Assembly: GCF_013315695.1 (NCBI RefSeq)
Contig: NZ_CP054353.1
Length of the DNA: 64,000 nucleotides
Direction: 5' to 3' (one strand)
Origin: Escherichia coli
GTDB taxonomy: Bacteria > Pseudomonadota > Gammaproteobacteria > Enterobacterales > Enterobacteriaceae
Shown here: in pieces, positions 1-6,000 of the stretch
Layout: every line of letters begins with the position of its first letter
Numbering within the stretch: position 1 is the first letter of the stretch
Program-made: the position numbers

Positions 1-3000
1 TACCCTGTTTGTTTAATTATGTTGTACACCTCTTCAGGAGTATTCATAAAACAAGGCAAATGTAAAGAACTGTATTGTTTTGTATAACCACATGGTTACC
101 TAATCGCCAATTAATATAAGCTCCATTATTTCTCCATATTTTTATGTTAGAAGTGACAAGGAGAAATGTAATGTTTCTCTCAGAGAATATAAATCATTCC
201 TTTTGCACACCTTAATGGTGGGCTTTTTTATGCAAAACCTGAACGTCCTGTGGTATTACTCTGGCATAATGATTTTCGCGATTAACCAACAACCAGACCA
301 GCAAAGACGCCACCACAAGCACAGCAACATCCATCAGGCTTGCCACACCCCATATGTGCGGCTCAAAGCCGCCATGGCATATTAATCCGCTTGCCATTTT
401 CGAACAGCTGATTGGTTTAGTCCGGTGTTTCCCTGCTTGCACTTAAAAATGAGCGGATGGGAAACTCTCGAAATGGTTCGTCGATATGCTCACCTTTCAG
501 TCAGGCATTTCACCGCGCACGCGAGCAAAATCAAAGGCACAAGAGGAGAACGTAGTTTACTTAAATGTGAGATAACTTATTGATTTAAATGGTGCCGATA
601 AGAGGAGTAAAACACTCGATTAATCTCGTGTTAATGCCATCACCTACGACCATTACTAATTGATTGAATCTTATAGAAAAAATTATCATTTTCTATGCGT
701 TACAATCAATTTTCACATTACAAACGCTCCGACACTTTAGCCGGGGAGTTTATGAGATACAAGCCCAATCAATACATAATCTGTGATTCTTACGGTAACT
801 ACTATTTGAGGATCACGTTGCCTGTGTATATGCAGCCCTTTTTTGAAGGAAAAAGGACGTTTGTCAGAAGTCTGCACACAAGTAGTCTTCGTGTTGCACG
901 TAGAAAGCGTGATCAGATTGCAGATGAATACCATTGTCTACGGGAGAGTGTCGCCCCTGTAAACAGCACAATAGAGAACACGCTGGAACTGTTACGCAGT
1001 AAGGCTAAATACGCCAAAACAGCTACCAGAATGCAAGATACAGCGTCTTCGTGTCCGTCATTGCTTAAAATTCTTGAAATCTACCTGACAATTAACAGCA
1101 CGAAGAAGAAGCCAGCCACTTTAGCTAAGGCAAGAAAAGCGGTAGAGATGTTTCTCTCCTACCGTAAAAAGCCTGATATTGCATTGCAAGATGTAAGCCG
1201 CACCACTGTTACAGGCTGGATAGAACACATGCAAAAAACCCTTTCACAACAATCAATTGCAAATTATATCAGCCCAATGGCCCAGCTATGGGAGTTAGCT
1301 TCATCACGTTACCACGATGCGCCAGAAAGGGCGCTCTCCCCCTGGCGAGGGCATAGGCTTGATGTGGCACAAAGTAGAGAGAGCTACGAGGCATTTTCTA
1401 ACAAAGAGCTATTGCAGGTGTTGCAAGTATTTTCCGGTGATTCAGCAGAAAACAAAGAAATGATGGCTTTGTGTCTTATCGGTGCTTATACAGGTATGCG
1501 GATCAATGAGATAGCAAGTCTCACAATAGACGATGTGAAAGAGATCGAAGGTGTGCTGTGTTTTGAAATCACACAGGGAAAAACGAAAGCTGCGGCACGT
1601 CTTGTGCCTGTGCATAGCCTTATCACTCCGTTGGTGTTGTCGCTGCGTGAAAAGCCTCATAATGGCTTTTTGTTCTATCACGCCAGCATTACAGAGCGTG
1701 CTGATGGTAAACGTTCCACGTGGCACACGCAGAGATTTACAAGAGCTAAACGAAAGGCTTTAGGGGAAAAGGGAACAGAAAGGAAGGTGTTTCATTCTCT
1801 GAGACACGGAGTAGCACAGCTTCTTGATCGAAATCAAATTCCAGAAGACAGGATCGCCCTTCTCCTGGGCCATACACGCGGCAATACAGAGACATTCCGC
1901 ACATATAGCAAGAATGCAGCTTCTCCAGTAGAGCTTAAAAACTATATTGAGCTTCTACGCTACCCTGAAATAGAGAAAGGCTTATCAATCAATAAAAAAT
2001 CAAATTTAATGCGCAAAACAACGCCATAGACGCAATAAAGAGGCTTCAACATAGATTGGTAGCCTCTTTTATAATTACATCGTTACAGAGCGTTTTAGAG
2101 GCATTTACGGCTATTCCTGTTTAAAGGCAGGAGTAATAGTGTCTTCACCTTCACTACTTGATTTTTCAGTGTTAACACGTTTTTTCATATTCGCCCCGAT
2201 GTTCTTAGATGGCTGTGTTTTGATAGCTACAGTGTTTACAGTACCATAAGAAACTAATCTTATTTGTTCAAAGCTAAGATCAAATACCAGGGATTCGCTT
2301 GCCTCTTCTGTGTATTCGATGCCTGTTAAAACAACGTTCTCAAAAGTTTTATTTTCTGTAACAAGAAGAAAAGGCTGTCTACTGTCCATAATCTGATTCA
2401 AGTAGTCTATAGCTAATGATCTTCTGTTCCCGTTCACCCCTGCACTCTTTAACAAGCCAGGATCGCTTTTAATCGGTGTTTCAGTGATACGCCCTTTAAG
2501 AGAGAACTTATTGTTTTTAATTTGAACGTGATCAGACACAGTAGCACCATTTTCTACGGGGTAGCTTGTGACATCTGCCGAACGTCTCACGTTCACATCG
2601 TCAACACTATCAAAGGCCAGTGCCATATAATTTTCATAAACGTCATTACCAGAAGATGCCAAGCCACTGGTAACAATAGCAAATCCGTTCTCTCCTTTTG
2701 TTTTATTAGCTTTGCTATTTTCGTTTTTTGTAGAATTTATATCTTGTTCTGCTTTGTAAACAGCCTGAACGTGTTGTTCTGGAGTATTTGCTGCACGTAT
2801 GGTTAAAATCCCGGCGGTCGCCATAATAATAATTTTCCTTGTAATGTTATGGCGGGAATTCCCCGCCGTTGGATTGTCCTGATAAGCTGGTTAATGTTAA
2901 TGATTTCAAGAAGCTATCCCGACTTGCTCTCGCTGTAAAATCCACATAATCGCTCAATCGTCCGGTGTCTGATTCGATAGTTAGCGGCACTTCTGTTACC

Positions 3001-6000
3001 ACTTCAAATGTAGGATTCAGATTAAACACAGGAGATAAATTATAAGCTGGAGTTGTCATTGCAAGATTATTTAAAGCACCCTGTTTGAGATTGGTTATCG
3101 GTGCTTCATTGACTGACATTTTTACATCTGACACAGAAGAATTATCATCGAAAAGCAATCCCTTAATTGTGTTAAAGAGAGAATGACTATTATCAGGTGT
3201 AGTTGTTGCAGTGCCAGCGCCTTTATATTGATTAGGAACGAGATTAGAAAGATTCTGTTTCATCCCTTCATTGCTTAATGGCGGTGCATCACCCATATTT
3301 TTCTGAATAGCATCTGTCTTATCATCATTACGATTAAACCAGTTTACAATCTTCATAATAGCTTCAAAGAGACTTCCTGTAGCTTCTCCCAGCTTCGTAA
3401 AATACGGAGTGAGATTAGAAAGGTTTTTCATAAACTCTTCCGTTACTTTTGGATCGAGAGATTTCATAAAGCCGTCTACGAATGCTACTTGTCTTGCATC
3501 AGAAAGCTGTGAAAGCTGTCTGTTTAGTTCTCTGAATTTAACAATAGAGTCTTGCTGTGTTTCTGTTAGCCATTTTCCAGAGGCTTTTTGCTGATTAATA
3601 CTTTCTTGTACATCTTTAACGGAACGTTGCCAATATTTTGACGTAAGCATCAAATCATCGCCCAGGTCTTCTAAACGTTGTCCAATTTGGGAGTCTGAAA
3701 ACCCTTTTTTCATCATTCCATTAACAGCCTTAGAAATTAATCCAGCCGGATTATCAGCAAATTTTTTAAGGTCGCTTTTGTTAATAACACCGATGTTTAT
3801 AGACTGGCCCCCTGAATCTCCAGACAACCAGTATCACTTATTTAAGTGATAGTCTTAATACTAGTTTTTAGACTAGTCATTGGAGAGCAGATGATTGATG
3901 TCTTAGGACCGGAGAAACGCAGACGGCGTACCACACAGGAAAAGATCGCAATTGTTCAGCAGAGCTTTGAACCGGGGATGACGGTCTCCCTCGTTGCCCG
4001 GCAACATGGTGTAGCAGCCAGCCAGTTATTTCTCTGGCGTAAGCAATACCAGGAAGGAAGTCTTACTGCTGTCGCCGCCGGAGAACAGGTTGTTCCTGCC
4101 TCTGAACTTGCTGCCGCCATGAAGCAGATTAAAGAACTCCAGCGCCTGCTCGGCAAGAAAACGATGGAAAATGAACTCCTCAAAGAAGCCGTTGAATATG
4201 GACGGGCAAAAAAGTGGATAGCGCACGCGCCCTTATTGCCCGGGGATGGGGAGTAAGCTTAGTCAGCCGTTGTCTCCGGGTGTCGCGTGCGCAGTTGCAC
4301 GTCATTCTCAGACGAACCGATGACTGGATGGATGGCCGCCGCAGTCGTCACACTGATGATACGGATGTGCTTCTCCGTATACACCATGTTATCGGAGAGC
4401 TGCCCACGTATGGTTATCGTCGGGTATGGGCGCTGCTTCGCAGACAGGCAGAACTTGATGGTATGCCTGCGATCAATGCCAAACGTGTTTACCGGATCAT
4501 GCGCCAGAATGCGCTGTTGCTTGAGCGAAAACCTGCTGTACCGCCATCGAAACGGGCACATACAGGCAGAGTGGCCGTGAAAGAAAGCAATCAGCGATGG
4601 TGCTCTGACGGGTTCGAGTTCTGCTGTGATAACGGAGAGAGACTGCGTGTCACGTTCGCGCTGGACTGCAGTGATCGTGAGGCACTGCACTGGGCGGTCA
4701 CTACCGGCGGCTTCAACAGTGAAACAGTACAGGACGTCATGCTGGGAGCGGTGGAACGCCGCTTCGGCAACGATCTTCCGTCGTCTCCAGTGGAGTGGCT
4801 GACGGATAATGGTTCATGCTACCGGGCTAATGAAACACGCCAGTTCGCCCGGATGTTGGGACTTGAACCGAAGAACACGGCGGTGCGGAGTCCGGAGAGT
4901 AACGGAATAGCAGAGAGCTTCGTGAAAACGATAAAGCGTGACTACATCAGTATCATGCCCAAACCAGACGGGTTAACGGCAGCAAAGAACCTTGCAGAGG
5001 CGTTCGAGCATTATAACGAATGGCATCCGCATAGTGCGCTGGGTTATCGCTCGCCACGGGAATATCTGCGGCAGCGGGCTTGTAATGGGTTAAGTGATAA
5101 CAGATGTCTGGAAATATAGGGGCAAATCCATTAACACATAAGCAATCAGTATGATTGGTTAGGTGATTACTCTTACTGCGCACAGCGCAATAGATTTCTT
5201 CGTGGGCGTTACCGCCAACGAAGTTACACGAAGAAAGTAACGCTTTGCTTTCGGTGTGAGCGGAACGGGCCAGCCACGAAGCCCGAAAGGTAGCGGAGTA
5301 AGGCTGCTTGCCAGAGAGTGAAGCTAACGCCGGAAGGCAAAAGATCATATATATAGATATAAAGAATATTATTATTATGATCTAATTAATAATCTAATAT
5401 AGTTTTATTAATAGTCTTATTGTAGTTCACAGTGACCTACCCCCTAGCTCACTATGACCTACCGTTACTACCAATCATCACATAGCACTCACTCTGTGTA
5501 ATGCCTTTCTATGTGTGTGCCATAATCCCCTATATTCCCTGTGTAAATCATAGAATATCCCTAACTTATTCCTGTGTAATTCCATACTAAAAATTCAATG
5601 AAAAGTAGCTTAAAAGTGCAATTCTTACTTTCTTCACTTTTACATCACTTTCGCAAATCCTTGTGTAGTGCGGCCTACAGAGCACCATCAGAAATTGTTG
5701 GCTAAAAATTGTTCTGCTTGTTTCTTAACGAGTTTTCTCGTTTGTGCAAATTTTAAAATTTATTTTGTTTTTACAGCCTTATTTCGTGTAATGCGTGGCA
5801 TAGCAAGCCCTTTTCTTGTGTTGTCAAGACATTTGGCAACGTTCAAACATCTGTTTAGAAATGCCAAATTGTTGATCTAACAAATAAACCTGTATAAACA
5901 GAACACCATTTAATCTATTCCCCTGTGTAATCCACTACATCACACAATAAAAACAAAAAAACCTTTAATTATGTTTCATAGCATACAAAAGTCAACAGAA

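Follow-up and report, generated by a model that had tools for sequence, protein, structure and literature searches.

How can a complete insertion sequence come to lie between flanks that do not match? The question is raised by a copy of IS2 located at positions 3800-5130, on the + strand, of a 64,000-nucleotide stretch of Escherichia coli DNA (contig NZ_CP054353.1), the whole of which is referred to here as the window. The element has the length (1,331 bp) and the imperfect terminal inverted repeats specific to IS2, with IRL running from 3800 and IRR to 5130; its terminal 30-mers are exactly the canonical IRL and IRR, each occurring once in the window, and over its full length it is 100% identical to E. 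coli copies annotated as 'IS3-like element IS2 family transposase'. The ORFs called in it are orfA (3891-4256, + strand) and orfB (4214-5119, + strand), connected by a programmed −1 frameshift. The called genes match Pfam HTH_Tnp_1 and rve, as befits a DDE transposase, and in RefSeq the same copy is recorded as non-pseudo, with an intact transposase and its programmed frameshift. The flanking 5-mers are GTTTA on the left (3795-3799) and TTAAC on the right (5131-5135). The first-pass annotation had described intact termini between differing 5-bp flanks, and re-inspection gave the same picture, no identical 5-bp duplication being found at the window copy. The duplication that serves to recognise IS2 is present around the same copy in sister genomes; since strain AF3 carries an identical IS2 with the same boundaries, flanked by GTTTA on both sides, the boundaries have not been mis-set. 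Judged from these comparisons, the lack of a duplication is a secondary trait that leaves the identity of the element unaffected.

The interrupted gene

IS2 lies within a phage-like island of about 12 kb, delimited by thrW-derived repeats and carrying an integrase at one end. A 326-aa ORF (2847-3827, − strand), already noted to run into the left end of the element, reaches 28 nt into IRL. Its codons 1-9 belong to IS2, codon 10 is mixed across the junction, and codons 11-322 correspond to native residues 298-609. The last four codons (EFPP) are read-through: an A to C change at position 2861, private to the window among 22 relatives, destroys the native TAA stop (2859-2861) and the ORF continues to 2847, so that 14 of the 326 codons are non-native in all. 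Orthologues of the interrupted gene are 609-612 aa long, not 326, and the ORF is therefore a 3′ remnant, located at 2859-3799 (− strand) and holding residues ~297/298-609 of 609 by comparison with the intact orthologue and the AF3 reconstruction. In that reconstruction, removal of IS2 and one GTTTA from the AF3 sequence restored a 609-aa ORF, 591 of whose 609 residues are identical to those of the intact orthologue. The 609-aa protein matches the tape measure protein family phrog_16051 (E 8.8e-54, residues 154-609) and is 34-37% identical to phi92-type tape-measure proteins; Pfam and NCBIfam scans of it returned no match. The gene is followed by the one encoding a Dit_like protein, an order that parallels muut_231 then muut_230 in phage muut. 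By homology, the interrupted gene is one that encodes a tape-measure-like protein, and annotation pipelines should not treat the 326-aa ORF as a gene.

Sister genomes and the lost interval

The state that preceded the present one is preserved in sister strains. In the near-identical E. coli genomes AF3, OZ039268 and KE136785, and in eight similar places, the same IS2 occupies the same nucleotide, bounded by a perfect GTTTA/GTTTA duplication and followed by the full interval, and nine IS-free relatives have an empty site with a single GTTTA. The GTTTA at 3795-3799 is the surviving copy of that original duplication. Apart from a 6,413-bp gap, the window is collinear with AF3; one flank of the gap (5,130 bp) shows 2 mismatches and the other (4,883 bp) shows 3. 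The missing DNA is the segment that in the sister genomes separates the right end of IS2 from TTAAC; the gap begins exactly at the end of IRR, the second GTTTA lies within the lost DNA, and in the window the final IRR base, A5130, is directly followed by TTAAC (junction at 5130-5135). Comparison with islands lacking IS2, which the first-pass annotation had proposed, yielded the ancestral gene of 609-612 aa and its empty site, and the extent of the loss was defined against the IS2-bearing sisters. Because sisters with the same IS2 site keep the duplication and an otherwise complete island, the insertion preceded the deletion. A history of IS2 insertion followed by an IS2-anchored deletion can be held with very high confidence.

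This order of events would be wrong if insertion and deletion had occurred in a single step, or if IS2 had struck this site separately in the lineage of the window; the duplication-bearing sisters would then not be ancestral. For IS5 in E. coli C, it has been proposed that the element moved and a large deletion formed together, with no duplication left (PMC11708052). Here, such an origin is very improbable: at the left junction the two forms agree base for base, their IS2 copies match at 100%, and across the flanking 10-50 kb they show only a handful of SNPs and the same unusual island context. That one nucleotide should have been hit twice, independently, in sister strains is, moreover, far less likely than a single hit with a later deletion.

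The same deletion junction was found in MSB1_4I, in UGAA01000001 and four similar places, and in contigs: one from JGI, which covers IS2 from end to end, and three further ones from metagenomes. Its presence in MSB1_4I and UGAA01000001, two independent assemblies that are complete or nearly so, besides these contigs, with a right flank made of island DNA in the correct orientation, renders an assembly mis-join across the repeated IS2 scarcely credible. One metagenome contig (L019), in which IS2 is linked to the aerobactin locus, is nevertheless a chimera of that kind; its IRR-aerobactin junction is present elsewhere in the AF3 and MSB1_4I chromosomes.

Within the lost interval lay the 5′ 894 bp of the tape-measure-like gene, genes for a major capsid protein and for a replication-initiator-like HTH protein, eight small genes and, as non-coding DNA, 949 bp. 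The HTH protein, of 230 aa, matches the phage replication-initiator families phrog_270 (E 1e-9) and Pfam HTH_36. The earlier suspicion that the event may have taken away a replication gene beside the iterons is supported, the initiator-like gene being lost and the repeats kept.

Microhomology at the junction amounts to 0 bp on either side, and the far breakpoint showed no cryptic IS2 end. An illegitimate deletion independent of the IS, by replication slippage or end joining, would have had to start at the IS2 terminus by chance. Spontaneous losses of this size do occur in decaying prophage-like islands, and other copies of the island bear unrelated damage (IS3 and IS5-type insertions, truncations). 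However, the breakpoint coincides with the IS2 end to the nucleotide, for which the chance would be of the order of 1 in thousands, and neither breakpoint offers the microhomology normally required for slippage, so that this origin is highly unlikely. The locus has instead the traits of an adjacent deletion, with a breakpoint exactly on the IS terminus, one IS copy kept, and lost DNA that was contiguous with the IS in a progenitor whose insertion was normal. The first-pass annotation had offered an IS2-mediated deletion or rearrangement in place of a simple insertion. The deletion is confirmed by the 6,413 bp missing relative to the sister genomes, and the rearrangement is not, the event being a plain adjacent deletion with no wider rearrangement; the participation of transposase goes beyond what sequence alone can tell. 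Insertion followed by adjacent deletion is a known and ordinary, though well-documented, kind of event.

Routes from insertion to deletion

The history can be resolved into two steps. In the first, which the comparison of sister strains has shown, an ordinary insertion of IS2 at codon 297/298 of the 609-aa gene duplicated GTTTA. In the second, a descendant lost the 6,413 bp just outside IRR, including the second GTTTA, with the IRR terminus becoming joined to the non-coding TTAAC. The product of this second step was shown above, and we infer its route. Catalysis by the transposase, by means of IS2 transposition chemistry within the chromosome, can be regarded as likely, if only mildly so. The 3′-OH of the donor end at IRR, or an IRR-IRL junction formed in place, would have attacked a nearby TTAAC on the same molecule, with the classical adjacent-deletion outcome of one IS copy left and no duplication. 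The precise breakpoint at the last IS2 nucleotide, without microhomology, counts for this route. The deletion falls on the IRR side of the element, and IRR is the sole IS2 end with donor activity (cleavage and strand transfer) in the first step, IRL being donor-inactive (PMC3299598). In the long-term evolution experiment, adjacent deletions made up 14 of 83 events of IS150, another member of the IS3 family; none had a duplication, each site had already held the IS earlier, and some removed only 14 bp (PMC11708052). [quoted passage not shown] The literature search found no paper in which IS2 itself makes an adjacent deletion, the support coming from its relatives IS150 and IS3; donor-end adjacent deletion has been shown for these relatives and, apparently, not for IS2. 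The established IS2 pathway proceeds through a figure-of-eight and a minicircle to integration (PMC3299598); from this pathway alone an adjacent deletion would not be expected. The deletion could represent a one-ended, IRR-initiated and undescribed reaction of IS2.

The same two-step history may be accommodated by the host. A second IS2 in the same orientation would have entered at TTAAC, 6.4 kb away, by insertion of a minicircle with its own TTAAC duplication, and RecA-dependent recombination between the 1.3-kb direct repeats would have removed one copy together with the interval. This sequence of events deserves appreciable, though less than even, credence. It predicts exactly the product GTTTA-IS2-TTAAC with a precise IS end, TTAAC is AT-rich and, at 5 bp, as long as the first target, and the insertion agrees with the copy-out-paste-in pathway accepted for IS2 (PMC3299598). 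Missing duplications are, moreover, acknowledged to arise when IS copies recombine with one another (PMC11708052). A further metagenome contig of this lineage (L032) has a second IS2 end at a distance of about 12.4 kb. Each end of the contig is an IS2 IRR, the second adjoining the counterpart of window position 11138, and IS2 may thus have re-inserted locally in this lineage, unless the contig is an inversion product. On the other hand, two rare events are required rather than one, and the 14-bp deletions adjacent to IS150 argue for direct deletion by IS3-family elements (PMC11708052). IS2 occupies the first site in only 2 of 5,426 complete genomes, AF3 and MSB1_4I, and in neither was a second IS2 copy found inside the island. 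The predicted two-copy junction (GAGAGAGTTAAC joined to IRL) had 0 matches in JGI metagenome contigs against 4 for the control junctions in the same search, three for the deletion junction and one for the duplication junction. This absence is weak evidence, because the intermediate would not last long and assemblies from short reads are interrupted at IS2. Transposase catalysis and recombination with a transient second IS2 lead to an identical final product, with no sequence feature that discriminates between them.

Classical adjacent deletions are known for IS1, IS903 and IS10 (cited in PMC11708052). As in those systems, one IS copy is kept here, the junction is precise at the IS end and the loss is contiguous and one-sided; those elements, however, use replicative-cointegrate or cut-and-paste chemistry, and IS2 is not known to perform an equivalent intramolecular reaction. 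A close parallel in course is that of IS150, in which a normal insertion is also followed by loss of the flank exactly from the IS end, at a site where the IS was present earlier, leaving no duplication, over lengths from tens of bp to tens of kb (PMC11708052). The present case differs in that the element is IS2, that the stages are kept in natural sister isolates instead of frozen time points, and that there is one deletion endpoint with no stepwise extension. With respect to canonical IS2, the element is the same 1,331-bp one with asymmetric ends, the insertion in the sisters made a 5-bp duplication, and the deletion lies on the side of the donor-active IRR; the window copy differs in having no duplication, and the canonical pathway covers insertion of a new copy, not loss beside a resident one (PMC3299598). 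The locus offers a worked example of why an intact IS can lack a duplication, natural isolates having kept all three states: the site before insertion, the insertion alone and the insertion with its adjacent deletion. Strains of the AF3 type provide a natural substrate for asking whether IS2 itself catalyses donor-end adjacent deletions.

The island and its phage relatives

The left boundary of the island is the repeat TGGTGCCGATAAGAGGAGT (590-608), a copy of the 3′ end of tRNA-Thr (thrW) that matches the tRNA-Thr annotated in strain 2014C-3061; a tRNA search of the window itself found none. At the right boundary stands TTGTGCGATAATAGGA (7507-7522), in which the thrW 3′ end recurs in degenerate form, and the alignment of the window to the island of 2014C-3061 ends inside the tRNA-Thr. 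An intact tyrosine integrase gene lies at 752-2029 on the + strand (RefSeq WP_024190322.1, 425 aa; 444 aa if read from the ATG at 695, the first in frame), with Pfam Phage_integrase and DUF6538 domains and weak XerD-type NCBIfam matches. It is followed by an intact Dit-like, tail-tube-initiator-like gene of 237 aa (2111-2824, − strand; PF21821 Dit_like, E 3e-29), the product of which is 60% identical to muut_230 of Justusliebigvirus muut and 56-60% identical to those of the 'tail tube initiator' genes of 146-152 kb coliphages. Beyond IS2, the retained distal part (5131-7506) is mostly non-coding, with a single 52-aa ORF in RefSeq and no match in an Rfam search. It keeps five same-strand iteron-like repeats, YCTGTGTAAW, at 5493, 5538, 5571, 5922 and 6265 (span 5493-6274); the motif has 10 matches in the window against 3.25 expected, half of them clustered in this part. 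With the capsid gene, the initiator-like gene and eight small genes gone and the tape-measure-like gene deprived of its 5′ half, this copy of the island is, as read from its gene content, a dead remnant, in which the integrase and the Dit-like gene persist along with the att and iteron-like repeats. Its state matters when a strain is scored for prophage or satellite content.

The wider value of the locus lies in an island family that shares genes with large lytic coliphages. The phi92-like coliphages (Stephanstirmvirinae: Justusliebigvirus and Phapecoctavirus) have a tape-measure protein 34-37% identical to that of the interrupted gene, and in them, as in the island, the next gene is of the tail-tube-initiator or Dit-like type, with 60% identity. 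With the adjacent muut_231 and muut_230 of Justusliebigvirus muut, the pair shares 32-71% and 60% identity, respectively. In contrast to those phages, the gene resides here in an integrated island of ~12 kb with an integrase, not in a lytic phage genome of 146 kb, and no portal, terminase, sheath or tube genes were detected in the island. Intact copies contain the integrase, a replication-initiator-like gene beside the iteron-like repeats and a gpE-type capsid gene of their own.

Phage satellites are recognised by different hallmarks, AlpA and Pri-Rep in PICI, Sid, Psu and Delta with the alpha primase in P4, and, in cfPICI, a full head module (portal, protease, terminase small subunit). The island resembles a satellite in being a small integrated element with integrase and att repeats, its ~12 kb lying within the size of about 10-18 kb of such elements. 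Pfam, PHROG, NCBIfam and PADLOC scans of its proteins found only the integrase, the HTH initiator-like, the gpE-type capsid, the tape-measure-like and the Dit-like proteins; they returned no portal, terminase, protease, primase or AlpA, and the island does not show the hallmark genes of the known families (P4-like, PICI, cfPICI, PLE). An undescribed family of thrW-integrated, satellite-like or hijacker elements of ~12 kb, targeting the lytic phi92-like coliphages (Stephanstirmvirinae), is a tentative and rather doubtful reading of this gene content. If it were true, the IS2 insertion and the deletion would record the natural inactivation of such an element. Some copies of the island also carry a 55-aa gene that shares 98% amino-acid and 99.6% nucleotide identity with Justusliebigvirus muut.

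The IS2 copy and the gene that it interrupts

On all sequence criteria the element at 3800-5130 (plus strand) is IS2. It is complete (1,331 bp), both its terminal 30-mers are identical to the canonical left (IRL) and right (IRR) ends, and over its full length it is 100% identical to E. coli copies annotated 'IS3-like element IS2 family transposase'. The reading frames orfA (3891-4256) and orfB (4214-5119) are open, and the RefSeq annotation of this copy in a sister genome gives an intact transposase with a programmed frameshift. The first-pass annotation had described intact termini between unlike 5-bp flanks, and re-inspection agrees, with GTTTA at 3795-3799 on the left and TTAAC at 5131-5135 on the right, rather than an identical duplication. 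The terminal 30-mers of IRL and IRR occur once each across the 64-kb window, which holds no further IS2 copy that could be paired with the mismatched flanks by inversion or translocation.

The 326-aa open reading frame (2847-3827, minus strand) does run into the left end of IS2, as had been claimed, with 28 nt of it lying inside IRL. Its codons comprise 9 derived from IS2, 1 mixed, 312 native (residues 298-609) and 4 read-through. The read-through results from an A to C change at 2861, which removes the native stop (TAA to GAA) and lengthens the frame by EFPP. The equivalent position is A in all 22 relatives compared; the C, seen in the window alone, reflects either drift in a dead gene or an error of sequencing, and a private stop-codon change is as expected for a dead gene. 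The 326-aa protein is not full length, the intact product in relatives being 609-612 aa. The interrupted 609-aa gene has a match in the PHROG tape-measure family phrog_16051 (E 8.8e-54), and phi92-like coliphages have tape-measure proteins with 34-37% identity to its product.

The state before the deletion and the DNA that was lost

The DNA to the left and the DNA to the right of IS2 in the window are each present in hundreds of complete E. coli genomes, and the distance between them distinguishes the window from its sister AF3 (NZ_OZ547117.1), being 1.3 kb in the former versus 7.7 kb in the latter. AF3 carries an identical IS2 at the identical nucleotide, with GTTTA on both sides, and the sequence joined to IRR in the window (TTAACACATAAG...) is found there 6,413 bp further on. 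Since the same IS2 copy has its duplication in sister genomes, the absence of the duplication from the window is secondary. If IS2 and one GTTTA are taken out of AF3, the 609-aa frame becomes continuous again, and it is identical at 591 of 609 residues to the intact WP_032314455.1 of strain 2014C-3061. In nine IS-free relatives the site is empty and has only one GTTTA (AACACCGAT-GTTTA-GAAGTTC); where no other IS intervenes, the right-hand endpoint follows on uninterrupted DNA about 6.35 kb away. The gap aside, the window and AF3 are collinear: the 5,130 bp on one side of it contain 2 mismatches and the 4,883 bp on the other contain 3; MSB1_4I (NZ_LR898874.1), collinear with the window over 49.8 kb with 10 mismatches, shares the deletion. 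The comparison with IS2-free relatives advised in the first-pass annotation has thus recovered the empty site and the 609-aa gene and delimited the deleted interval. The proposal that IS2 mediated a deletion, instead of simply inserting, is supported by the duplication form in sister genomes and by the 6,413 bp missing from the window.

The missing DNA corresponds to 4,746,865-4,753,277 of the AF3 record (4866-11278 of the extracted locus). It comprises the 5' 894 bp of the tape-measure-like gene, the second GTTTA copy, 949 bp of non-coding DNA and, as whole genes, the 67-aa gene, the capsid gene, five small genes, a replication-initiator-like gene and two more small genes. The suspicion that a replication gene had been removed is hence borne out, as the interval includes an HTH gene matching replication-initiator families. 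Five iteron-like YCTGTGTAAW repeats on the same strand (5493-6274) are kept in the window, and the deleted DNA contains none of them.

Among 5,426 complete E. coli genomes IS2 occupies this site only in AF3 and MSB1_4I, and the deletion junction is found only in MSB1_4I. In a larger assembly collection the truncated gene product diagnostic of the insertion gave 130 blocks; the 24 longest contigs were read, and nine have the duplication form (e.g. KE136785.1) and six the deletion form (e.g. UGAA01000001.1 and a JGI contig). With a degenerate junction pattern, three further metagenome contigs were found to have the deletion junction and one to have the duplication junction. Its recurrence in several assemblies and metagenome contigs indicates that the deletion is real and heritable, and no artefact of assembly. 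A metagenome contig in which IS2 is joined to the aerobactin locus was considered as a third junction type and rejected: the chromosomes of AF3 and MSB1_4I both have this IRR-aerobactin junction at another place, which marks the contig as an assembly chimera. The IS2 of strain TW10573 is likewise not the same junction; it inserted independently into a related element that occupies another locus (NZ_CP127035.1 572574-591178), between thiM and rcnR, with a TPP riboswitch annotation on either side. That element has the non-coding sequence found to the right of the window's IS2, and its own IS2 lies about 400 bp from the equivalent position.

Origin of the deletion junction

The history almost certainly had two steps, an insertion of IS2 followed by a deletion anchored at one of its ends. 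In the first, IS2 inserted normally with a 5-bp duplication; in the second, DNA was lost from exactly the last nucleotide of IRR, the remaining IS2 staying intact. The breakpoints show 0 bp of microhomology on each side, and a search for an IRL- or IRR-like pseudo-end at the far breakpoint matched at best 12-13 of 25 bases, which is also the mean for shuffled sequence. At the sequence level the event fits the definition of an IS adjacent deletion, having a precise breakpoint at the IS end, one copy kept, contiguous DNA lost and a normally inserted progenitor. A deletion independent of any IS, a single-step or independent insertion and an assembly artefact are, even taken together, very improbable.

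The step that made the junction is one that we infer, and two routes to it would yield the same product. Catalysis of the deletion by the transposase is somewhat probable: IRR, or an in-place IRR-IRL junction, would be joined intramolecularly to TTAAC 6.4 kb away. This route is favoured by the position of the deletion on the side of IRR, which is the only donor-active IS2 end in the first chemical step (PMC3299598). It is also favoured by the related IS150 in the long-term evolution experiment, the closest documented parallel, where adjacent deletions made up 14 of 83 IS events, none with a duplication, all at sites already occupied by the IS and some of only 14 bp (PMC11708052), and by IS3, which makes more adjacent deletions when its transposase reading frames are artificially fused (Sekine et al. 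1994, as cited in PMC11708052). Moreover, the intermediate with two copies that the other route implies was not found: there is none among complete E. coli genomes, the AF3 and MSB1_4I regions having been inspected, and the second-copy junction (GAGAGAGTTAAC joined to IRL) is absent from metagenome contigs, in which a control pattern found the known junctions.

The other route, in which a second IS2 inserted at TTAAC in direct orientation and RecA then recombined the two copies, agrees with the canonical minicircle pathway and is a serious possibility, although a less than probable one. A 12.5-kb metagenome contig (OIWQ01004002.1) bears on it too. The contig is bounded at both ends by IRR, so one member of the lineage has a second IS2 end, and it covers the equivalent of 5131-11138 together with the 6.4-kb interval. 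At one end it has the junction with the GTTTA duplication; the other abuts the equivalent of 11138, a position free of IS2 in the window; this latter junction is absent from all complete E. coli genomes searched. The arrangement could represent a second, inverted IS2 from a simple local re-insertion, or an intramolecular inversion mediated by IS2. The event is of an ordinary, well-understood and already known kind of IS-driven decay of mobile islands; what this case adds is that empty site, simple insertion and deletion are all preserved among natural isolates.

The thrW island and its surroundings

The island family is of more interest than the IS2 event itself. The island measures roughly 12 kb, an intact copy lying within 600-12100 of locus L006. 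The copy in the window is bounded by copies of the 3' end of thrW (tRNA-Thr) at 590-608 and 7507-7522, and in strain 2014C-3061 the island directly adjoins thrW. The order of genes is conserved among IS-free copies: small genes of 62 and 55/56 aa and an HTH protein of 217-239 aa, followed by small genes of 92, 136, 111/112, 70 and 120 aa, the 342-aa capsid gene, the 67-aa gene, the 609-612-aa gene, the 237-aa gene and an integrase on the opposite strand. The 237-aa protein matches Dit_like (PF21821, E 3e-29), the 342-aa protein Phage_cap_E (E 2.5e-14), and a 230-aa HTH protein HTH_36 and replication-initiator families (phrog_270, E 1e-9, and several others). PADLOC and NCBIfam scans of the island proteins returned no defence system, the integrase being the only named-family match, and the protein scans detected no gene for a portal, terminase, protease, sheath, tube, primase or AlpA.

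Several of these proteins are related to those of Justusliebigvirus muut (146 kb), of the subfamily Stephanstirmvirinae, a group of large lytic coliphages. The Dit-like protein is 60% identical to muut_230, its closest phage relatives being annotated 'tail tube initiator' in coliphages of 146-152 kb, and the tape-measure-like protein matches the adjoining muut_231 (71% over the first 42 residues, 32% over residues 212-451). The 55-aa gene of some copies matches muut_153 (98% amino acid identity; 99.6% nucleotide identity over 239 bp), its neighbour, the 217-aa HTH protein, muut_154 (40%), and the capsid protein, weakly, the start of the muut record (about 22%). The island thus combines, in little space, integration, a capsid gene, a replication module and genes for tail initiation that match a lytic phage group, which is how one would picture a satellite or assembly hijacker. 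It might be an undescribed satellite or hijacker of Stephanstirmvirinae, a reading that we consider rather unlikely; the alternative is a decayed mosaic prophage remnant. Literature searches, full-text ones among them, turned up no paper that connects these phages with a satellite and no named thrW satellite.

About 2.5 kb of the island (5131-7506 in the window; 3253-5815 of the AF3 locus) is AT-rich and essentially unannotated, with two 19-nt TAGYTCACWRTGACCTACC repeats (5423 and 5445) and a G+C-rich patch at about 5170-5340. This stretch could be an origin for the replication-initiator-like protein, or encode an unknown RNA; Rfam gave no credible match either to the right of IS2 or within the deleted interval. 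The family is frequently degraded. Other copies (L003, L010, L012 and L015) have been damaged in ways unrelated to the IS2 event: the 120-aa gene is interrupted by IS3, an IS5-type element has inserted behind the HTH gene, and GmrSD and P2-like tail genes have taken the place of the left half.

A C-terminal fragment of another integrase gene, which the annotation of sister genomes calls a frameshifted pseudogene, lies at 421-608 and stops just short of the left thrW-like repeat. It suggests that islands are arrayed in tandem at thrW and that one more follows the right repeat at 7522. This other island encodes a PerC-family regulator, a pRiA4b ORF-3 family protein and a P22 gp16-like protein of 701 aa (about 11.7-13.8 kb). 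Two IS1 copies, at 13808-14575 and 31495-32262, have the same orientation and differ from each other at a single base. Neither has a 9-bp target duplication, and a crosswise comparison of their flanks gives no match, so that, with IS2, all three IS copies of the window mark rearrangements. Going by the annotation of the collinear MSB1_4I, the first IS1 lies at the join between island DNA and a LysR/aldo-keto-reductase/fdeC segment, and the second cuts lacA short beside ykgG. The pao operon, normally located between yagU and the island, is absent.
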